DNA of 64,000 bases from Escherichia phage PNJ1902, in the sequence record OK254197.1. One strand, written 5' to 3'. Shown one piece after another: positions 1 to 60,872 of this stretch. The notes beneath the pieces are model-generated. The model searched no databases. It was given only the letters and a program-made list of their open reading frames with translations, and had not been told where the DNA came from. Each line of letters begins with the position of its first letter. The first letter of the stretch is position 1. Made by a program: the position numbers and the translations under genes.

Positions 1-1317
1 ATGGAAGTATCAAGACCCTACGTTAATACGGTAGATGTTATTGATTTCGGAATAGATAAACGTTTCTTTCGTCTACCCGTTTCAGGAATATTAGCACAAG
101 AAGGTATTACACCTAATGGTCCTCAAATAGCAATTATTAATGCTCTAGAAGACCCTAGACATCGTTTTGTAACGGCGTGTGTATCACGCCGTGTGGGCAA
201 GTCCTTCATCGCATATACACTGGGGTTCCTAAAATTGCTGGAACCTAATGTGAAGGTGTTAGTAGTTGCCCCTAACTACTCACTGGCTAATATCGGATGG
301 TCTCAGATTCGTGGTCTCATTAAGAAGTATGGCCTACAAACCGAACGTGAGAACGCTAAAGATAAAGAGATTGAGCTGGCAAACGGCTCACTGTTTAAAC
401 TAGCTTCCGCGGCGCAGGCTGACTCAGCAGTCGGACGTTCATATGACTTTATCATCTTTGACGAGGCGGCAATTTCCGATGTAGGTGGTGATGCCTTCAG
501 AGTTCAGCTGCGTCCTACTCTAGATAAGCCTAATTCTAAGGCTCTATTTATCTCTACTCCTCGTGGGGGTAACTGGTTTAAAGAGTTTTATGCCTATGGA
601 TTTGATGATACATTACCTAACTGGGTATCTATTCATGGTACATATCGTGATAACCCACGTGCTGATCTGAATGATATCGAAGAAGCACGTCGTACAGTTA
701 GTAAAAACTACTTCCGTCAGGAATATGAGGCTGACTTCTCTGTATTCGAAGGTCAGATCTTTGATACCTTTAATGCTATTGATCATGTTAAAGACCTTAA
801 AGGTATGCGTCACTTCTTTAAAGATGATGAAGCATTCGAAACGTTGCTTGGCATTGACGTGGGTTATCGTGATCCTACAGCAGTTCTTACTATCAAGTAT
901 CACTATGATACGGATACTTACTATGTTTTAGAAGAGTACCAGCAGGCGGAGAAAACTACAGCTCAGCATGCTGCTTACATTCAGCACTGTATAGATCGTT
1001 ATAAAGTTGATCGTGTTTTTGTTGACTCTGCCGCAGCTCAATTCCGCCAGGATTTAGCTTATGAACATGAAATTGCATCAGCTCCAGCTAAAAAGTCTGT
1101 CCTAGACGGTCTAGCATGTTTACAGGCGTTATTCCAGCAGGGTAAGATTATTGTAGATGCTTCATGCTCTTCATTAATCCATGCATTGCAGAACTATAAG
1201 TGGGATTTCCAAGAAGGCGAAGAAAAATTATCACGTGAAAAACCACGTCATGATGCTAACTCTCACCTCTGTGATGCTCTGCGCTATGGAATTTACTCTA
1301 TTTCCCGTGGTAAATAA
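1..1317 (+). CDS. Terminase large subunit (ATPase/nuclease); ORF begins at window edge, N-terminus may be complete or truncated
   Basis: 438 aa; Walker A-like VSRRVGKS near N-terminus, Walker B-like FIIFDEAA, C-terminal nuclease-like acidic motifs; lies upstream of portal. Confidence 0.88.
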   Translation: MEVSRPYVNTVDVIDFGIDKRFFRLPVSGILAQEGITPNGPQIAIINALEDPRHRFVTACVSRRVGKSFIAYTLGFLKLLEPNVKVLVVAPNYSLANIGWSQIRGLIKKYGLQTERENAKDKEIELANGSLFKLASAAQADSAVGRSYDFIIFDEAAISDVGGDAFRVQLRPTLDKPNSKALFISTPRGGNWFKEFYAYGFDDTLPNWVSIHGTYRDNPRADLNDIEEARRTVSKNYFRQEYEADFSVFEGQIFDTFNAIDHVKDLKGMRHFFKDDEAFETLLGIDVGYRDPTAVLTIKYHYDTDTYYVLEEYQQAEKTTAQHAAYIQHCIDRYKVDRVFVDSAAAQFRQDLAYEHEIASAPAKKSVLDGLACLQALFQQGKIIVDASCSSLIHALQNYKWDFQEGEEKLSREKPRHDANSHLCDALRYGIYSISRGK

Positions 1318-1325
1318 ATAAGTAT

Positions 1326-1360
1326 AGGATGGGATACTACTCAGTTGGTATCCCATTCCT
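1326..1360 (+). terminator. Stable stem-loop just after terminase stop (possible attenuator/terminator or processing site)
   Basis: About 11 bp stem GGATGGGATAC/GTATCCCATTCC with 10 nt loop; weak U-tract after it. Confidence 0.3.
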
Positions 1361-1488
1361 GCATTTTAAAATCCCCTTTACAAATTCGATACGATTATGT
1401 ATACTATATTCATTGATCGGGAGAACTTCTCCCATAATAGAACGTAAACAAGAAAAATTAGTGCTCTACATGGGGTGTAGGAGATTCT

Positions 1489-2181
1489 ATGGGTCGACAA
1501 AAGCTAACAATAAAAGATATAAATACTAGATTAGCTGATCGTGGAATCCGAATTGTCGGTGAATATGTAAACCAACGTACAAAAACATTATTTATGTGCC
1601 AAAGAGCACACGTTTGGGAAGCAACGCCGCATTCTATACTTCATATGGGAAGGAGTTGCCCACATTGCGCTCCTAATAATATATCGCTAGATGAAGTTAA
1701 TAATAGGGTATCCAGTATAGGGTATACACTATTAAATAACTATACTAATGCAAAAACAAAACTGCATCTACGCTGTAACAATGGTCATGAATGCTATATT
1801 ACCTTAGATGGGTTGACGCAGGGTAGAAGATGTCCTTATTGCTCCCTTAAATGGGATAATGGTGGATTTCTCTATATCATGTCCTCCTCTATGGGTACTA
1901 AAGTAGGTATAAGTTTATACCCCGAGAAGCGGTTGAACGAGGTTAAAAGAGAGTCTGGATTTTCAGATTTATACTTGTTTACCACATATCATCTACCTGA
2001 TAGAGAAACTGCTCTAGATTTAGAAAAAGAAGTCCATAGAGAGTACTATAATAAAAACTGTGGGTTTTCAAAATTTACAGGAAGCACAGAATTTTTTAAT
2101 GTTGCTCCAGAGGATATAGTAGTCTTTCTAAGTAACTTTGGATTGGAGGAACATGGCCACCAATGTAAAATTCAAACGTGA
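1489..2181 (+). CDS. Putative endonuclease: two N-terminal zinc-ribbon-like motifs plus C-terminal T5orf172/GIY-YIG-superfamily-like domain
   Basis: 230 aa; repeated H...GRSCPHC / GRRCPYC motifs; GFLYIM..KVGIS..EKRLNE resembles a GIY-YIG core; C-terminal GSTEFF resembles the T5orf172 signature. Confidence 0.5.
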   Translation: MGRQKLTIKDINTRLADRGIRIVGEYVNQRTKTLFMCQRAHVWEATPHSILHMGRSCPHCAPNNISLDEVNNRVSSIGYTLLNNYTNAKTKLHLRCNNGHECYITLDGLTQGRRCPYCSLKWDNGGFLYIMSSSMGTKVGISLYPEKRLNEVKRESGFSDLYLFTTYHLPDRETALDLEKEVHREYYNKNCGFSKFTGSTEFFNVAPEDIVVFLSNFGLEEHGHQCKIQT

Positions 2182-2590
2182 CGCCATATCGATTATGCGT
2201 GACGGCATTAAATCTAGGTATAGGAGGGGTGATTGCTGTGCAATCTGTGGTAGTAATGATGACCTAGAGTTACATCATTATTTTACTATTTCTCAATTAG
2301 TTAAAAAATTCGCTAAAGAAAATCAATTAGATTTCACTGATGAGGAGATTACCCTATCTAATAGGGAAGCATTCTATAAGCAATATGAGCGAGAGCTAAT
2401 TGAAGAAGTAGTAACACTCTGCCAGCATCACCACCAACTATTACATAAGGTTTACACAAAAGAACCTCCTTTATTTTCTGCTAATAAGCAAAAAGTGTGG
2501 GTTCAAAAGCAGAAAGACAAATTACAGAATCCTCAAGAAAAGACACAAGTCAAGACTGAAACAAAATCAGGATTCGCAAGGTTCTTATAA
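2138..2590 (+). CDS. HNH endonuclease
   Basis: CCAIC...ELHH...CQHHHQLLH gives a classic HNH zinc-finger/catalytic motif; overlaps the previous ORF by 44 nt in another frame (alternative ATG at 2153); stop overlaps portal ATG (TAATG). Confidence 0.75.
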   Translation: MDWRNMATNVKFKRDAISIMRDGIKSRYRRGDCCAICGSNDDLELHHYFTISQLVKKFAKENQLDFTDEEITLSNREAFYKQYERELIEEVVTLCQHHHQLLHKVYTKEPPLFSANKQKVWVQKQKDKLQNPQEKTQVKTETKSGFARFL

Positions 2591-3807
2591 TGGGTTTTAA
2601 AAGCTGGATTACTGAAAAGCTAAATCCGGGTCAACGTATTATAAGAGACATGGAACCAGTTAGTCATCGCACTAACCGTAAGCCTTTTACCACTGGACAA
2701 GCCTACAGTAAAATTGAGATTCTCAATAGAACTGCTAATATGGTTATAGATAGTGCGGCGGAGTGTTCTTATACTGTCGGAGATAAATATAATATTGTCA
2801 CGTATGCTAACGGCATCAAGACAAAGACTCTAGACACTCTCTTAAATGTACGACCTAATCCATTCATGGATATAAGCACATTCCGTAGACTTGTAGTCAC
2901 TGACCTACTTTTTGAAGGTTGTGCATACATCTATTGGGATGGCACAGCACTTTATCATGTCCCGGCTGCTCTTATGCAGGTCGAGGCAGATGCCAATAAG
3001 TTTATCAAAAAATTTATATTTAATAATCAGATAAACTATCGCGTAGATGAGATTATCTTTATAAAGGATAACAGTTACGTGTGTGGCACAAACTCTCAAA
3101 TTTCTGGACAATCTCGTGTTGCCACTGTTATTGATTCTCTTGAGAAGCGTTCCAAGATGCTTAACTTTAAAGAGAAGTTCCTAGATAACGGAACCGTGAT
3201 TGGTCTTATTCTTGAGACGGATGAAATCCTGAACAAGAAATTGCGTGAGCGTAAACAAGAAGAATTACAACTAGATTATAATCCTAGTACTGGTCAGTCA
3301 TCTGTCCTGATTCTAGATGGTGGTATGAAAGCTAAACCGTACTCCCAAATATCCTCTTTTAAAGATCTAGACTTTAAGGAAGACATTGAAGGATTTAATA
3401 AATCCATCTGTCTAGCCTTTGGTGTTCCGCAAGTGTTACTTGATGGCGGTAATAATGCGAACATTCGACCAAATATCGAACTGTTCTATTACATGACTAT
3501 CATCCCTATGCTGAACAAGCTGACTAGTTCTCTTACTTTCTTTTTTGGTTATAAGATTACTCCTAATACTAAGGAAGTAGCTGCACTAACACCAGATAAA
3601 GAAGCTGAGGCTAAACATTTAACCTCATTGGTTAATAATGGTATTATGACTGGTAACGAAGCTCGTTTAGAGCTGAACCTTGAACCTTTAGATGATGAGC
3701 AGATGAATAAAATTCGTATTCCTGCCAACGTTGCTGGTTCTGCAACAGGGGTATCTGGTCAAGAAGGTGGCAGACCTCAAGGTTCCACCGAGGGAGATAA
3801 AGAATGA
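2590..3807 (+). CDS. Portal protein (pb7-like)
   Basis: 405 aa ORF between terminase and head genes; size matches my recollection of the T5 portal; overlaps downstream gene start (ATGA). Confidence 0.8.
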   Translation: MGFKSWITEKLNPGQRIIRDMEPVSHRTNRKPFTTGQAYSKIEILNRTANMVIDSAAECSYTVGDKYNIVTYANGIKTKTLDTLLNVRPNPFMDISTFRRLVVTDLLFEGCAYIYWDGTALYHVPAALMQVEADANKFIKKFIFNNQINYRVDEIIFIKDNSYVCGTNSQISGQSRVATVIDSLEKRSKMLNFKEKFLDNGTVIGLILETDEILNKKLRERKQEELQLDYNPSTGQSSVLILDGGMKAKPYSQISSFKDLDFKEDIEGFNKSICLAFGVPQVLLDGGNNANIRPNIELFYYMTIIPMLNKLTSSLTFFFGYKITPNTKEVAALTPDKEAEAKHLTSLVNNGIMTGNEARLELNLEPLDDEQMNKIRIPANVAGSATGVSGQEGGRPQGSTEGDKE

Positions 3808-45933: not shown

Positions 45934-46323
45934 TTAGTCATTTAATCCCGGAACATAGATCCCAACACGGCTTAACTGTTCTTTAGCTTCTGCGAGAATA
46001 TCTGGAGTGTACTCCCAAATATCATCTTCCACCTGTAAAAGATGGGGCGAACAACCGTCACCAGGCACACGACATATGGCCAAACCACGTGGATGGAATA
46101 TAGAGAAGTTTAGGGCAACAATTAAACCCATAGCGGACAATTCATTCCAGTCCATCTCCCACTCCCTGGCATATCCAGATAGGAAAACGCCAATGCATGG
46201 ATCATCTATTTGCTGCTCAGGAAAAGTGAAGGAGGCTTGTCTTACCCCCAACCAACGTTGTAGCAGCTTCTCCGCACGTTTCACCAAACTAGGGTCAATC
46301 TGACGCCAATATACTTGTTCCAT
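45934..46323 (-). CDS. Hypothetical protein (tandem paralog 2)
   Basis: 129 aa; shares PCIG..., EL.xMGL(I/V)(V/F)ALN(F/Y) and C-terminal (I/Y)(Y/M)(V/I)PGL motifs with upstream neighbour. Confidence 0.55.
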   Translation of the reverse strand: MEQVYWRQIDPSLVKRAEKLLQRWLGVRQASFTFPEQQIDDPCIGVFLSGYAREWEMDWNELSAMGLIVALNFSIFHPRGLAICRVPGDGCSPHLLQVEDDIWEYTPDILAEAKEQLSRVGIYVPGLND

Positions 46324-46332
46324 TCTGCCTCC

Positions 46333-46761
46333 TTAAGCAGTTAAACCTGGGATCATATACCCGAAACGGCGAAGTTTCTGAATCCCCTCATTTACTTCTT
46401 CCGGTGAGTAAGACCAACCATAACGTTCATTAACCTGAAAACCAGGAGATTCACTAGTTTTATAGTTAACAACGAGGCGATGCTTAACAGGCATAAACAG
46501 CTTATAATTTAACGCAAAAACTAAGCCCATTTCGTCTAACTCTTTCCAGCCGACAATCTCTTCAAGACCCTCCTCTACCTGAACAATTAAACCAATACAG
46601 GGAGCCTCATCAATATCATCTTTAAAAGCAAAGGAGATTTCGTTATTCTCACACCATATTTTCAAGGAATTAATAGCCTCATTATACAGGCTAGAGGGGA
46701 GAGTACGCCAAAAGTTAACTAAAATTGGGTTAACTTCTTTAGAGAAGACATTATTGAACAT
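46333..46761 (-). CDS. Hypothetical protein (tandem paralog 1)
   Basis: 142 aa; paralogous motifs as above. Confidence 0.55.
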   Translation of the reverse strand: MFNNVFSKEVNPILVNFWRTLPSSLYNEAINSLKIWCENNEISFAFKDDIDEAPCIGLIVQVEEGLEEIVGWKELDEMGLVFALNYKLFMPVKHRLVVNYKTSESPGFQVNERYGWSYSPEEVNEGIQKLRRFGYMIPGLTA

Positions 46762-46763
46762 AT

Positions 46764-47270
46764 TTACACCTTAAATTGTTGTAAGGATTTACACATTTCA
46801 AGATCTGGGCTAAATTCTAGCATATAGCTAACAGCTTTTAAATCTTGAAGATTTATCCCAGTCCTACCGTTGACTATAACCGTTGGATACTGATACATCA
46901 TAGCACCCGCATCATCAAGCACACACCAATGTTTGAGCTTATGATTTTCAACAAAGCGAAGAACAGAATTACCCCTAGATAATCCACCCCCAGTAAAATC
47001 CGTTGTACCAAGAAAACGATCGATAAGACCTAATCTGGTCATAATCTGAACGTTCTCCATTTCATTTCTGACAGAAAACCAAGATGATACTCCAACAATC
47101 ATTATCGGAGAAGGACGAATAAAGTCCTGAAAAGCCTTGAGAAGCGGTTTGAAAACCCAATCACTTCCAAAGAAAATCTTTTCATCATCAGGTGCATGAT
47201 GGTGGGAGATGCTCGAATTGAGCACCCCATCAATATCTAGAAAAATAATTGGAGTATTACTTATTTCCAT
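46764..47270 (-). CDS. HAD-superfamily phosphatase-like protein
   Basis: 168 aa; motif I IFLDIDGVLN (DxDGx), later VLDDAG acidic motif. Confidence 0.6.
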   Translation of the reverse strand: MEISNTPIIFLDIDGVLNSSISHHHAPDDEKIFFGSDWVFKPLLKAFQDFIRPSPIMIVGVSSWFSVRNEMENVQIMTRLGLIDRFLGTTDFTGGGLSRGNSVLRFVENHKLKHWCVLDDAGAMMYQYPTVIVNGRTGINLQDLKAVSYMLEFSPDLEMCKSLQQFKV

Positions 47271-47439
47271 TTTTGTTCCTTTCTAAGAACGTATCATACT
47301 CAACCGTATCAACATATATAACACCATAGTCATCGGATTTATAGTCCATTTCCCACAGCTCACAGCGATAGCACCAACTACCATCCGCCCACACAAATAT
47401 ATCATCGGGATGTGTATACACAGGTTTAACTATGGACAT
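47257..47439 (-). CDS. Small hypothetical protein
   Basis: About 60 aa from internal ATG (MSIVKPVY...); overlaps neighbours in operon. Confidence 0.35.
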   Translation of the reverse strand: MSIVKPVYTHPDDIFVWADGSWCYRCELWEMDYKSDDYGVIYVDTVEYDTFLERNKNGNK

Positions 47440-48262
47440 ATCTGTTTCCCTTGCTTCTCGACACATAAGGTCTACCCTCTAAATGAGCTTCTACACGAGC
47501 AATAAAATTAGGGTCACTAAAAGCATCTACCGCACCTTTACTCCAGTAGGGGATACCACGTTCTTCTAGCTGGTACATCTCACTACGAGTCATACCTTGA
47601 TAGCCCGGTTCCGCCGCTAGGGCACTATCATAGTAGTTAACAACCATAAGTTTCGCAGCAGTCAAATTAAGAACAGGAAATAATTCCCAGTAGAAGTTAA
47701 TTACTTGGTTAGAGCAACCAACCACAATGATCATATCTTGACTGGTAATACCATCAAAAACATTATACATTTCTGCGTATGCAGGAGCATGCTCCCCAAA
47801 GAAGATTACATTAGGTTTAACCCATTTATAATCATCTGGGTCAATAGAATTGTATCCTACATCAATAATCCGTTTATTGCTACTATTGTAGCTATCAGCT
47901 ACAACAACCTCTTTTAAATATCCGTGAATGTGCAGAATGTCACTATGTGGAACGCCAGCACGCTCAATAAGGTCATCAACGTTGGTAGTCAAGTTTACTA
48001 CTTGACCTGGATATTGTTTATACCATTCACCAATACGCAAATGCGCAAGATTGGGTTCAACAGTTTTTAGCTCTTCACGACGCTTGTTGTAAAACATATG
48101 GGTTTTATGGTAAAAATTACCACGAAAGGCATGAATATTACATACTTCTTCTAGGTCATAATCATCCCACAGTGCTTTACCACTAGCAGTATCAGTACGA
48201 AAAGCTCGTACACCACTTTCAACACTCAAACCTGCACCGCTAATAATAATTAATCTACGCAT
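47426..48262 (-). CDS. Sir2-family (sirtuin-like) NAD-dependent enzyme, apparently lacking the zinc ribbon
   Basis: 278 aa; GAGLSVESGVRAFR (cf. sirtuin GAGISxxSGIPxFR), NLTTNVDDLIERAG (cf. TQNIDxLHxxAG), catalytic HG in ILHIHGYL, PNVIFFGE, VVGCSNQV; no CxxC pairs. Confidence 0.75.
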   Translation of the reverse strand: MRRLIIISGAGLSVESGVRAFRTDTASGKALWDDYDLEEVCNIHAFRGNFYHKTHMFYNKRREELKTVEPNLAHLRIGEWYKQYPGQVVNLTTNVDDLIERAGVPHSDILHIHGYLKEVVVADSYNSSNKRIIDVGYNSIDPDDYKWVKPNVIFFGEHAPAYAEMYNVFDGITSQDMIIVVGCSNQVINFYWELFPVLNLTAAKLMVVNYYDSALAAEPGYQGMTRSEMYQLEERGIPYWSKGAVDAFSDPNFIARVEAHLEGRPYVSRSKGNRYVHS

Positions 48263-57389: not shown

Positions 57390-57419
57390 TTGCTTATTTA
57401 GTGAAATTTAAATATAATA
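57390..57419 (+). promoter_or_regulatory. Early promoter
   Basis: TTGCTT - 18 bp - TATAAT. Confidence 0.6.
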
Positions 57420-57443
57420 TATTTTATAAATTGGAGGCATATA

Positions 57444-57725
57444 ATGATCTCAGCCAAAGAAGCTCAAGAACTTGCAGGATTAACAGAAGTACCTGCATTT
57501 CTAAAGTTTATAGAAGAAAAGATCGTAGAAGCTGCTAAGTCTGGAAATACAGAAGTAATTATTCGAGATAATCCTTACGCTAGGTGGCTATATAATCCTA
57601 GAGAAATGCCAGGAGCAGCTAAATCGGTACTAAAAACCTTATCGGATAAGGGGTATCATATCTCTCAATACTACCGAGAAGCTGCCTTTGTAGACATGGG
57701 TCTTAAAATTAGTTGGGAGGTATAA
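57444..57725 (+). CDS. Hypothetical protein
   Basis: 93 aa; RBS GGAGG; stop overlaps RNase H start (TAATG). Confidence 0.5.
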   Translation: MISAKEAQELAGLTEVPAFLKFIEEKIVEAAKSGNTEVIIRDNPYARWLYNPREMPGAAKSVLKTLSDKGYHISQYYREAAFVDMGLKISWEV

Positions 57726-58201
57726 TGTCGGTTTTCCACATTTACACAGATGGTGCTTGTAAGTCTAACCCAGGTCCAGGTGCTTGGGGTTTTATTGTCT
57801 ATAATGATAACGACGATCGTTTAGGTTCTAAATCTGGTTATAATCCTAAAACTACAAATAATGAGATGGAACTCACAGCTATTGTAGAGGCTTTACGTTG
57901 GTCTGTTAAAAAAGATAATAGACCAATTGCTATCTATACTGACTCTGCTTATTGCAAAAATGGCATGGAAAGTTGGATGTTTTCTTGGCAAAGGAAAGGC
58001 TGGAAGAAAGCAGATGGTGAAGCTCCTCTTAATCTAGAACTTTGGCAGGAAGCATTTAAATTAACACAGCAGTATATCAACTTTCATAATACTAACCCTA
58101 CCTTTATTAAGGTTAAAGGACACTCTGGTATTAGTGGTAATGAAGCTGTAGATGCATTGTGTAATACAGTTATTACTGAAGCTGAAATGGCTGAGATGTA
58201 A
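57725..58201 (+). CDS. rnhA: Ribonuclease H (RNase HI type)
   Basis: DEDD-type acidic residues in YTDGAC, ELTAIVEAL, IYTDSAY, plus GHSGISGNEAVD; ATG at 57725 after GGGAGG. Confidence 0.85.
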   Translation: MSVFHIYTDGACKSNPGPGAWGFIVYNDNDDRLGSKSGYNPKTTNNEMELTAIVEALRWSVKKDNRPIAIYTDSAYCKNGMESWMFSWQRKGWKKADGEAPLNLELWQEAFKLTQQYINFHNTNPTFIKVKGHSGISGNEAVDALCNTVITEAEMAEM

Positions 58202-58221
58202 TAAATAAATTAAAAATTCAC

Positions 58222-58250
58222 TTGCTTAAAGCCCTCTAATTTAGTATAAT
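58222..58250 (+). promoter_or_regulatory. Early promoter flanked by a 9-bp inverted repeat
   Basis: TTGCTT - 17 bp - TATAAT; AAAGCCCTC at 58228-58236 and GAGGGCTTT at 58268-58276. Confidence 0.6.
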
Positions 58251-58277
58251 ATTCGTATTGAAAGTGAGGAGGGCTTT

Positions 58278-58562
58278 ATGCGGATTTATAACTCAAATTC
58301 ATTAGGATTTAAGCCATTGAGAAAACGTGCACAATCACCTCGTCAAATAAGAAAGGCTAATATTGGTGAGCCAGAAACACGTCTTCCACCTCCTCCAGAG
58401 CAACGTTTAGTTTATCTGGACGAAGAGTTAGCTGAACGCGAAAGAAAAGCTCAAGAAGAGATTGAGCGTAAGAAAATGTGTACTGCTCCAGCCTACTCCA
58501 AAGGAGCTTATCAGTATATCTATACAGCCGAGGAGGCTAAAGATGCGGGGCGTAAAAAATGA
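58278..58562 (+). CDS. Hypothetical protein
   Basis: 94 aa; RBS GAGGAGGG. Confidence 0.5.
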   Translation: MRIYNSNSLGFKPLRKRAQSPRQIRKANIGEPETRLPPPPEQRLVYLDEELAERERKAQEEIERKKMCTAPAYSKGAYQYIYTAEEAKDAGRKK

Positions 58563-59008
58563 AGATTACCGAATTTAAAGGTACTTATAGTTTCTTATCT
58601 AACTTTTATTTATCACCAATTACTTTCGAATACCTAAACGAGATATGGCATGCTGATACTGTAGAACATGCTTTTCAGGCTATGAAATCCGACCAAAAAG
58701 ATGATGTAGCTCATGTACTGCGCTCCCTAAATGCAGGAGTTGCCAAACGTAGAGGACGTAAATTAACTCTACGCTCTGACTGGGATAAGGTAAAAGATGA
58801 TGTAATGCTAGAGCTTTTACGGTTAAAGTTTGCAATCCCTGATTTGAGAGACAAACTGTTAGCAACAAAAAATGCAACTTTGATCGAAGGAAATACCTGG
58901 GGAGATACATATTGGGGTGTTTGCCGAGGCATCGGGGATAATACTCTAGGTGTTCTTTTGATGCAGGTAAGGTCTGAAATTAAAAGAAGCTTACAGTTAA
59001 TAAATTAA
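58559..59008 (+). CDS. NADAR (YbiA-like) domain protein
   Basis: 149 aa; FLSNF, EHAFQA, AKRRGRK, WDKVKDDVMLELLRLKF, GNTWGDTYWG, GDNTLGVLLMQVR line up with E. coli YbiA blocks (FSNF, EHYFQA, ARMGR..., NDAYWG, LGYLLMELR) as I recall them. Confidence 0.75.
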   Translation: MKITEFKGTYSFLSNFYLSPITFEYLNEIWHADTVEHAFQAMKSDQKDDVAHVLRSLNAGVAKRRGRKLTLRSDWDKVKDDVMLELLRLKFAIPDLRDKLLATKNATLIEGNTWGDTYWGVCRGIGDNTLGVLLMQVRSEIKRSLQLIN

Positions 59009-59016
59009 AAATTCAT

Positions 59017-59045
59017 TTGCTAAATGCTTCAAATTCTCGTATAAT
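59017..59045 (+). promoter_or_regulatory. Early promoter
   Basis: TTGCTA - 17 bp - TATAAT then ATACTTCATAAATTGA. Confidence 0.65.
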
Positions 59046-59083
59046 ATACTTCATAAATTGATAAACAAAAAGGAAAACAAATA

Positions 59084-59599
59084 ATGGCTAAGCAGAAAAA
59101 CGCAAAAACTCAAGCAGCTCCGGCAGTTAAAACTTTCCCGCAGACCGAGGCTAATCGCAAAGCTCGCCTGGAACGTCACCTGCGTAAGCATCCTACCGAT
59201 ACCCAGGCTGCGCAAGCACTGAATAATCCGGCTCCGATTCGTCAGAAGCCTAAAGCTAAAAATGCCACCCGTAAATCCTACAAAATGGTTATGTATGTAG
59301 AAAATTACGGCCACAAATCTGTCCCAGTTTCCCTGAGCTTTAACGCTGGGGCTGAATTGTTCTCTCGTAATGGTATGTCTATGAAAGACTATGAGAAGGC
59401 AGTTAACCAGAAGCGTAAACCAACAGCAGATGTATTGCGCGATACTCGTGGACAGTTTGGTTCTGTTAAGCCAAATATCTTTGGCGTAGAGTATAGTAAA
59501 GATAATGTTCGTGCTCTGTGTTACGGTGTAGGCATTAAGTTCACGGGTGATTCTGCTTGTAAATCTGCTAAACCAGCTCGTAAGCGTAAAGCGAAGTAA
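59084..59599 (+). CDS. Hypothetical highly basic protein (possible nucleic-acid-binding, highly expressed)
   Basis: 171 aa, Lys/Arg-rich termini; strongly host-optimal codon usage; own promoter and RBS AAAGGAAAA. Confidence 0.55.
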   Translation: MAKQKNAKTQAAPAVKTFPQTEANRKARLERHLRKHPTDTQAAQALNNPAPIRQKPKAKNATRKSYKMVMYVENYGHKSVPVSLSFNAGAELFSRNGMSMKDYEKAVNQKRKPTADVLRDTRGQFGSVKPNIFGVEYSKDNVRALCYGVGIKFTGDSACKSAKPARKRKAK

Positions 59600-59608
59600 T
59601 AGATAAAT

Positions 59609-59630
59609 AGGGGCGAAAGCCCCTACAATC
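59609..59630 (+). terminator. GC-rich tetraloop stem-loop (weak terminator or processing site)
   Basis: AGGGGC-GAAA-GCCCCT; downstream tract not strongly U-rich. Confidence 0.4.
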
Positions 59631-59663
59631 GATTAATTCTCTAACTAATCAAGGATATTTTTT

Positions 59664-59879
59664 ATGTTCTCTAAGAAACCACGTTCTGTTACTGAAATTG
59701 TTGCTTCCTTTACCACTATCACTGATGAGCTTCAAGCTCGTATTGAGGCTGATCAAAAAATCGCAGCTGATATTCAGAAACAGCAGGAAGAACTCGCTTT
59801 AAAGTTGGCTGAAACTAACAAGAGTGAAAAATCTGCCCAAACTATTATGGAAAATATCCTTAAACTGCTGGGCAAGTGA
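59664..59879 (+). CDS. Hypothetical protein
   Basis: 71 aa ORF bracketed by stem-loops. Confidence 0.5.
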   Translation: MFSKKPRSVTEIVASFTTITDELQARIEADQKIAADIQKQQEELALKLAETNKSEKSAQTIMENILKLLGK

Positions 59880-59886
59880 TTTAAAT

Positions 59887-59912
59887 CAGGGGGCAAAAGC
59901 CCCTCTTATTTG
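59887..59912 (+). terminator. Putative terminator
   Basis: AGGGGC-AAAA-GCCCCT followed by CTTATTTGG. Confidence 0.5.
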
Positions 59913-59920
59913 GAGAAACT

Positions 59921-60142
59921 ATGCGTAATTTTGTAGCAAAGAATGATTTTAACCGTGCTAGCACCCATAAGTCAGCTAGGGATTATACACGACTTTCTAG
60001 TCATGAGGTAATGGATTTAGCAGTGGATGAGTTAGACTTAGATGACCCCTATATGGAAGAGAACTGGGATGTCAGTGAGGATATGCTTCCTGGTTTTAAA
60101 GACCCCAAGAAGTGGGAGTCTATTAAAGAGACAGCTCTTTAA
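59921..60142 (+). CDS. Hypothetical protein
   Basis: 73 aa acidic ORF. Confidence 0.5.
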   Translation: MRNFVAKNDFNRASTHKSARDYTRLSSHEVMDLAVDELDLDDPYMEENWDVSEDMLPGFKDPKKWESIKETAL

Positions 60143-60170
60143 TAGTTTTCTACACAATAAAGGATAAGTT

Positions 60171-60872
60171 ATGAAAGTAAAACCATTTGGTATGCTAGAT
60201 ATTGAATCTCTAGGAACTCCAGGAGATTGTGGTACTACTCATATCGCAATGCCTTCTTTCGCTTTTGTGGCTATGCATGGAATTGATAAAGACCCTGATC
60301 TAGTATTTGTTACTTTGGATGTGCAAGATCAACTTAATTCTGGTGCCAAAGTTACAGCATCTACTCTAGCATTCTGGATGGATCAAGCTAAAAATAGTCC
60401 GTCTGCTATCCACATTATGGAAGCTATGAAGGAACGTAATCCAAAACTGATTGCCTTCCAAAATGGTAAACATCATTGCACTAATAAATTAGGCTCAAAC
60501 TATGCTGCCTTCTCTATGGCTCAAAATATTATGGAGTTGGCTCTAGGCGAAAATGCTTTGTATTATGGCAATGGCCCAGAGTTTGATATGACTATCTACT
60601 CTGCAAATACGTTCCATGCTGGAACCAATGAAGAGGTAGTTCCGTGGAAATTCTGGAATTTGGGCAATGTTCGATCTCTTCGTAATCTCTGGATGCAAGC
60701 TGGATACAGTTATAAAGCTCTAGAGACCGAAGGTATTAGCTGGGCAATAGCTAAAATGGAGAAGATGGACACTATTCGTTATGGGATCTATCCGGTTAAG
60801 CACGACCCAGCATTCGATGCCTTAGTTGAGAGCTATTGTGTTGCAGCTATGATCGAAAAAATGAAAATTTGA
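60171..60872 (+). CDS. Putative DEDDh-family 3'-5' exonuclease (DnaQ-like fold)
   Basis: 233 aa; exo I-like MLDIESLG and exo III-like HDPAFDA motifs. Confidence 0.55.
   Translation: MKVKPFGMLDIESLGTPGDCGTTHIAMPSFAFVAMHGIDKDPDLVFVTLDVQDQLNSGAKVTASTLAFWMDQAKNSPSAIHIMEAMKERNPKLIAFQNGKHHCTNKLGSNYAAFSMAQNIMELALGENALYYGNGPEFDMTIYSANTFHAGTNEEVVPWKFWNLGNVRSLRNLWMQAGYSYKALETEGISWAIAKMEKMDTIRYGIYPVKHDPAFDALVESYCVAAMIEKMKI

Follow-up and report, generated by a model that had tools for sequence, protein, structure and literature searches.

A NADAR gene of a T5-like phage as a probable ortholog of the anti-DarTG1 protein AdfN^Bas32

In the 64,000-nt stretch of Escherichia phage PNJ1902 analyzed here (OK254197.1; in the following called the window), the gene at positions 58559..59008 on the + strand encodes a NADAR-family protein of 149 amino acids. 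Because it is identical at 147 of 149 residues and lies in the same locus slot, we identify it from sequence as the ortholog of bas32_0066 (QXV80247.1), the published anti-defense protein AdfN^Bas32. The reading we favor, with a probability of about 0.87, is that it encodes an anti-DarT1 counter-defense enzyme of the AdfN^Bas32 type, a predicted DNA glycohydrolase that would remove guanine-linked ADP-ribose. An earlier note on this DNA, made from the letters alone, had proposed guanine de-ADP-ribosylation that counters DarT, and published experiments on AdfN^Bas32 support this proposal. Of the two roles it offered, counter-defense holds, and DNA repair is not needed as an alternative. The counter-defense reading is thus supported but already known: it is right yet not new, because the 99% identical AdfN^Bas32 was shown in 2025 to neutralize DarTG1.

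Arrangement of the NADAR locus

The window belongs to a T5-like phage (Demerecviridae, Tequintavirus). The genes around the NADAR gene follow the order nrdA-nrdB-frd-thy-(93-aa ORF)-rnh-(94-aa gene)-NADAR-DUF7022 gene, with a gene for an Rv2179c-like exonuclease further downstream. The gene order shared with annotated T5 indicates that the locus corresponds to the early nucleotide-metabolism/replication region of T5, and early expression of the NADAR gene would fit both the nrd-frd-thy-rnh synteny and the promoters annotated in T5.

The ORF listing and the translation of the window show the 149-codon frame running from ATG to stop, as described in the earlier note. On the reverse strand opposite 58559..59008 many stops close the frames. 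With a GC content of 37.3%, against 39.2% in the whole window, the gene shows no hint of a recent foreign origin.

Directly upstream lies a 94-aa gene (58278..58562, +), a homolog of T5.090 assigned to PHROG 4593, whose stop codon shares bases with the NADAR start codon (ATGA). Because of this overlap, the two genes are probably co-transcribed and translationally coupled. The T5.090 homolog is operon context and not a demonstrated functional partner of NADAR, because T5 has T5.090 without NADAR. The leader in front of this unit (58234..58277, +) is identical to T5 base for base (alignment columns 5-50), and its T5 counterpart is annotated as a promoter directly 5′ of T5.090 (regulatory feature, T5 record 46337-46411). 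This leader is likely the promoter and RBS region of the T5.090-homolog/NADAR unit. A simple promoter scan called no promoter 5′ of the 94-aa gene, and we used the identity to the T5-annotated promoter instead. Directly 3′ of the NADAR stop codon, a sigma-70-like promoter (TTGCTA-17-TATAAT; 59017..59045, +) corresponds to T5 promoter P-H 207 upstream of T5.089 and starts the next unit with the DUF7022 gene (59084..59599).

Between thyA and rnh, the window carries a 93-aa ORF (57444-57725, +) that belongs to PHROG 5321 and has no Pfam match. The same interval is a 133-bp gap in T5 and a 375-bp gap with no CDS annotated in the Bas32 record; it may be another small slot for accessory genes.

The NADAR gene is an accessory gene of T5-like phages

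The 2.8-kb region surrounding the NADAR gene matches 443 phage records, almost all of them T5-like Demerecviridae, whereas the NADAR allele itself is found in 95 (megablast). T5 lacks the gene: there, T5.090 is directly followed by promoter P-H 207 and T5.089. The window and T5 are identical across the leader and over most of the 94-aa gene. In its last ~20 codons, the left edge of the indel, the sequences start to diverge, and they remain divergent through the 450-bp NADAR ORF. At the right edge, near-identity returns right after the NADAR stop codon, at the promoter 59017-59045, and the T5 segment AAAAATTCATTTGCTAAACGCTTCAAATTCTCGTATAATATACTTC aligns to the window from 59006 onward. These boundaries were taken from the sequences directly; a MAFFT alignment set the 3′ portion of T5 in the wrong place. 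Relative to T5, NADAR is therefore a clean one-gene indel, an accessory gene carried by a minority of T5-like phages and not by T5. This fits the published sensitivity of T5, which naturally lacks NADAR, to DarTG1 and its rescue by AdfN^Bas32 supplied in trans.

A second NADAR of 149 amino acids, 60% identical to that of the window, is encoded by Salmonella phage vB_SenS_UTK0009 (Epseptimavirus, NC_111487.1 49333-49782). It occupies a different slot of the same neighborhood: there the gene immediately follows rnh and precedes the T5.090 homolog, whereas the window gene follows that homolog. The different slot and the 60% identity suggest independent acquisition or allele replacement within a variable region of T5-like genomes. 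The window also appears mosaic when its positions 1-3000 and 57400-60200 are compared with public genomes: the NADAR region shares 99.7% identity with Salmonella phage vB_SalS_ABTNLsp9, while at the terminase/portal end the best match is SP01 with 97.3%, most records reaching 80-95%.

Near-identity to AdfN^Bas32

AdfN^Bas32 is the name given to the NADAR protein of the T5-like BASEL phages Bas32 (IrisVonRoten) and Bas33 (Johannesman, Awasthi, Carlson, LeRoux, Nat Commun 2025;16:1598; PMC11825919; preprint PMC11257639). Its gene sits in the same slot, within the order nrdB-frd-thy-rnh-T5.090 homolog-NADAR-DUF7022, in a phage of the same genus (Tequintavirus), and the two proteins are of equal length. 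They differ in T9 (Ala in Bas32) and K104 (Glu in Bas32). We set aside a functional weight of these substitutions; both columns lie away from the conserved motifs and are hypervariable: across 61 homologs, position 9 takes 11 different residues and position 104 takes 8. The two alleles differ in 12 codons, ten of which are synonymous, as would be expected under purifying selection. A further difference is that the closest full record of the window is a Salmonella phage and not an E. coli phage.

According to PMC11825919, ectopically expressed AdfN^Bas32 neutralizes the DarT1 toxin in E. coli and restores the full titer of RB69, T5 and Bas25, all three sensitive to DarTG1, on DarTG1 hosts. It does not rescue T5 from the thymidine-modifying DarTG2 and, unlike T4 AdfN, requires no phage-specific factor. 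In the phylogeny published there, it groups with two archaeal NADARs, apart from the YbiA housekeeping cluster. In the text consulted, the evidence on AdfN^Bas32 comes from ectopic expression; no native-phage deletion, purified-protein assay or catalytic mutant of this clade was found there. A full-text literature search on AdfN returned the original paper and one preprint on a T4 transposon screen, and no later work on T5-like AdfN.

From this near-identity we infer that the window allele has the same activity and would benefit its native phage.

Family assignment and predicted structure

The NADAR domain named in the earlier note was confirmed by a profile search. The protein matches Pfam NADAR (PF08719, DUF1768) over profile positions 9-163 of 163 with E=6.3e-22 and 79 bits, far beyond chance and against a gathering cutoff of 35.1 bits. 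It also matches PHROG 1017 (“unknown function”) at 8e-45. Searched with phmmer against PDB sequences, it found E. coli YbiA (2b3w, E=2.8e-15, residues 9-141) and the P. nicotianae NADAR, PnNADAR (8bau, 6.8e-7), and no other real match. With a profile built from the 61 homologs, these matches improved to 1e-37 and 1.4e-19, respectively.

An AlphaFold2 model computed from the 61-homolog alignment reached a pLDDT of 97.8 and a pTM of 0.91. It shows the helical core with two small flanking beta-sheets that characterizes the NADAR fold. A Foldseek search with this model (E≤0.001) returned only YbiA (TM 0.83) and ADP-ribose-bound PnNADAR (TM 0.78); the solved structures that the model resembles, three in number, are all NADAR structures. 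The product of 58559..59008 clearly belongs to the NADAR superfamily. Membership in the DS32_2 NADAR anti-phage family (NF053876) was rejected, since the score of 45 bits lies far under the NCBIfam cutoff of 240 bits.

Conservation of active-site residues

From the profile alignment to 8bau, we selected E36, K43, K63, R67, W75, K79, E110, D116, and W119 as candidate active-site residues; in this order they correspond to PnNADAR E43, K50, K75, R79, W89, R93, E125, D130, and W133. In PnNADAR, the distal ribose is held by E43 and E125, and the pyrophosphate is contacted by K50, R79, W89, R93, W133, and D130 (Schuller et al., PMC11543638). K75 lies nearby. In the E. coli C7 NADAR, hydrolysis and rescue from DarT1 both depend on the equivalents of E43, K50, and E125, and its K75 equivalent, K115, is required for rescue in vivo (PMC11543638). 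The roles that we assign to individual residues of the window protein are predictions derived from the PnNADAR-ADPr structure and these E. coli C7 mutants.

The catalytic positions are conserved relative to the characterized NADAR enzymes. Five of the nine (E36, K43, E110, D116, and W119) are invariant among the 61 homologs, and the remainder are at least 79% conserved, with K63 and W75 at 98% and the position of K79 always occupied by K or R. The one exchange against PnNADAR that we note, R93 to K79, is shared with YbiA. At the position that defines NADAR subfamilies (E125 in PnNADAR), the window protein has a glutamate, E110. The same position is occupied by Asp in DarG1-type antitoxins and by His in T4-type phage NADARs (PMC11543638).

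Proposed mechanism and substrate range

In an infected DarTG1 host, DarT1 would ADP-ribosylate guanine (N2) in the phage DNA and thereby block its replication. The phage NADAR would be made from the early nucleotide-metabolism/replication region as an orphan, antitoxin-like protein consisting of the stand-alone core domain. It is predicted to bind the ADP-ribose moiety, E36 and E110 holding the distal ribose and K43, R67, W75, K79, W119, and D116 the phosphates, and would hydrolyze the N-glycosidic bond that joins ribose to guanine. Hydrolysis would leave unmodified DNA and allow replication to resume. The target in this scheme would be the DNA lesion, not the toxin. If so, the enzyme should counter any guanine-directed DNA ADP-ribosyltransferase, but not the thymidine modification by DarT2.

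Other NADAR substrates are on record, namely riboflavin intermediates and RNA-linked and cytidine-linked ADP-ribose. According to a 2026 study, cytidine-linked ADP-ribose is removed from DNA and RNA by members of the NADAR family and the YbiA family, but not by DarG1s or T4 AdfN (PMC12945103). The main natural target could accordingly differ from DarT1-modified DNA, for instance cytidine- or RNA-linked ADP-ribose produced by other defenses, anti-DarTG1 activity being then one facet. E110, a Glu of the YbiA/NADAR type where DarG1 has Asp and the T4 type His, is in line with such a target, and the authors of PMC11825919 raise DNA- or RNA-ADP-ribosylating defenses yet to be discovered as possible targets. 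However, the sole in vivo phenotype recorded for a T5-like NADAR is directed against DarT1/DarTG1, and no phage defense that ADP-ribosylates cytidine is described in the literature cited here. We consider a different main target improbable.

A broader range in addition to guanine is a separate matter. Because the T5-like AdfN combines the YbiA-type Glu with a bare core fold, unlike DarG1 with its Asp and unlike T4 AdfN, it may be a broad-spectrum eraser that also acts on cytidine- and RNA-linked ADP-ribose; we regard this as tentative and rather doubtful. If true, such an enzyme would shield the phage from ADP-ribosylating defenses beyond DarTG1. It would also account for the recruitment of a non-DarG “orphan antitoxin” and for its independence from phage-specific factors.

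Comparison with YbiA, T4 AdfN, and DarG1

E. coli K-12 YbiA (PDB 2B3W) is the closest solved structure, shares the Glu at the subfamily-defining position and is 37% identical to the window protein. Most of the block-by-block alignment with YbiA drawn in the earlier note was reproduced. Both proteins have the motifs EHAFQA (36-41; EH.FQA), RGR (65-67), WDKVKDDVM (75-83; W..VK..VM), TWGDTYWG (113-120; TWGD.YWG), and LGVLLMQVR (130-138; LG.LLM..R). The first block, given there as FSNF, is FSNF in YbiA but LSNF (13-16) in the window protein. “YbiA-like” is an apt description of the fold and of the subfamily Glu, but not of the sub-cutoff equivalog score reported below or of the published grouping of this type with archaeal NADARs.

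YbiA itself is a chromosomal housekeeping enzyme, a riboflavin-intermediate N-glycosidase encoded in the LexA-controlled dinG-ybiB operon. A corresponding housekeeping role for the phage protein, destroying reactive intermediates of the riboflavin pathway, is what annotations such as “ribA/ribD-fused” and “GTP cyclohydrolase II” imply, and we judge it highly improbable. The match to the riboflavin N-glycosidase equivalog TIGR02464 scores 66.8 bits, under the curated NCBIfam cutoff of 73.7. The context also differs: the phage is lytic, the gene lies between the T5.090 homolog and the DUF7022 gene downstream of nrd-frd-thy-rnh, its neighbors serve DNA metabolism, and no riboflavin gene is present among the neighbors scanned or among those named in the near-identical record. 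Furthermore, the published phylogeny sets the Bas32 type apart from the YbiA-like housekeeping group, and the 99% identical Bas32 ortholog rescues from DarT1 in vivo, whereas YbiA does not. On these grounds of score, context, and in vivo behavior we rejected an identity as YbiA equivalog.

YbiA hydrolyzes G-ADPr in vitro, yet does not rescue from DarT1 toxicity in vivo (PMC11125620). Because of this mismatch, the in vivo efficacy of the phage clade is not deducible from fold, residues, or YbiA similarity alone; the case that the window protein would be effective in vivo comes from its near-identity to AdfN^Bas32.

From genomic context and ahead of any biochemical work, Iyer et al. 2022 (PMC9503650) suggested that Macro, NADAR, SLOG, and Nudix proteins of phages degrade small ADP-ribose-derived immune signals or toxins, such as cADPR variants. 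For the window protein this seems no easier to accept than the riboflavin role. The idea has no experimental support for any NADAR, the neighboring genes scanned against Pfam contain no SLOG, Macro, or Nudix domain, and a DNA-directed activity suffices for the published phenotype.

The anti-DarT1 enzyme that we favor has two further relatives with which it can be compared. T4 AdfN (AdfN^T4, gp30.3) likewise stands alone as a phage NADAR and follows the same counter-defense logic, and the equivalents of E36 and K43 align. However, it is only 18% identical, belongs to a separate clade nearest DarG1, has His in place of the conserved Glu, and cannot neutralize DarT1 outside T-even infection. Membership of the window protein in the gp30.3 clade was rejected on this identity, on the retained Glu, and on the placement of Bas32 outside that clade in the literature; the two types of AdfN were acquired independently. 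For the NADAR antitoxins of the DarG1/BC4488 type (E. coli C7, G. lovleyi; PDB 8BAT), the same chemistry, hydrolysis of guanine-N2-ADP-ribose, has been proposed, and their function as DarT1 antidotes is common to them and AdfN^Bas32. The window gene is nevertheless not of the DarG1 type, since it has neither the N-terminal extension nor Asp in place of Glu nor an adjacent darT1.

The Sir2-like gene and its cluster

The Sir2-like gene mentioned in the earlier note exists (47426..48262, minus strand; PF02146 E=8e-25, PHROG 2162 6e-121), but the partnership with NADAR suggested there did not hold up. About 10 kb separates the two genes, which are on opposite strands and belong to different transcription units, Sir2 is more widespread (234 vs 95 phage records for the NADAR allele, megablast), and T5 has Sir2 (T5.102) and no NADAR. 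Although both genes are within the window and Sir2 enzymes are capable of ADP-ribosylation, as also noted in the T5.102 annotation, a pair in which Sir2 writes and NADAR erases, or a joint NAD/ADPr pathway, is the least probable reading of all, given this separation, the unequal distribution with T5 as counter-example, and the fact that AdfN^Bas32 works by itself in E. coli, no phage factor being required; we rejected it.

Following Sir2 after a short gap, a protein with a “Swiss Army Knife RNA repair” HAD domain (HAD_SAK_2, E=2e-20) is encoded at 46764..47270 (-), and next to it two paralogous DUF7415 proteins at 46333..46761 and 45934..46323 (-). T5 retains this Sir2/HAD/DUF7415 cluster (45934-48262 in the window) as T5.102-T5.107, and there the HAD protein carries the annotation of a second “Sir2”. 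By its domain content it may be an NAD-linked module for RNA repair or host manipulation.

Annotation and implications

Public records label this NADAR gene “swarming motility protein (YbiA)”, “GTP cyclohydrolase II”, “N-glycosidase”, “DUF1768 domain-containing protein”, “NADAR family protein”, or “hypothetical protein”, and one GenBank record from 2025 has “antitoxin-like enzyme”. Two other labels in public records are doubtful as well. The gene at 60171-60872 (+) is called “metallopeptidase” in many T5-like records, which looks wrong because its product matches the Rv2179c-like 3′-5′ exoribonuclease family (PF16473, E=3e-8) and its T5 homolog T5.087 is labeled “exonuclease”. OR848833.1 and OR847649.1 (2-3.5 kb), assigned to “Listeria phage LM 4-14-1 / 4-11-1”, contain the T5-like NADAR region with 97-99% identity and are probably pieces of a T5-like enterobacterial phage that were mislabeled or entered as contaminants.

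As the mechanism and the counter-defense role were published in 2025, the present analysis opens no new question. It gives an inconsistently labeled gene a literature-backed name, AdfN, anti-DarTG1 DNA ADP-ribosylglycohydrolase. The presence or absence of NADAR should predict which of the therapeutically used T5-like Salmonella and E. coli phages infect DarTG1 hosts.
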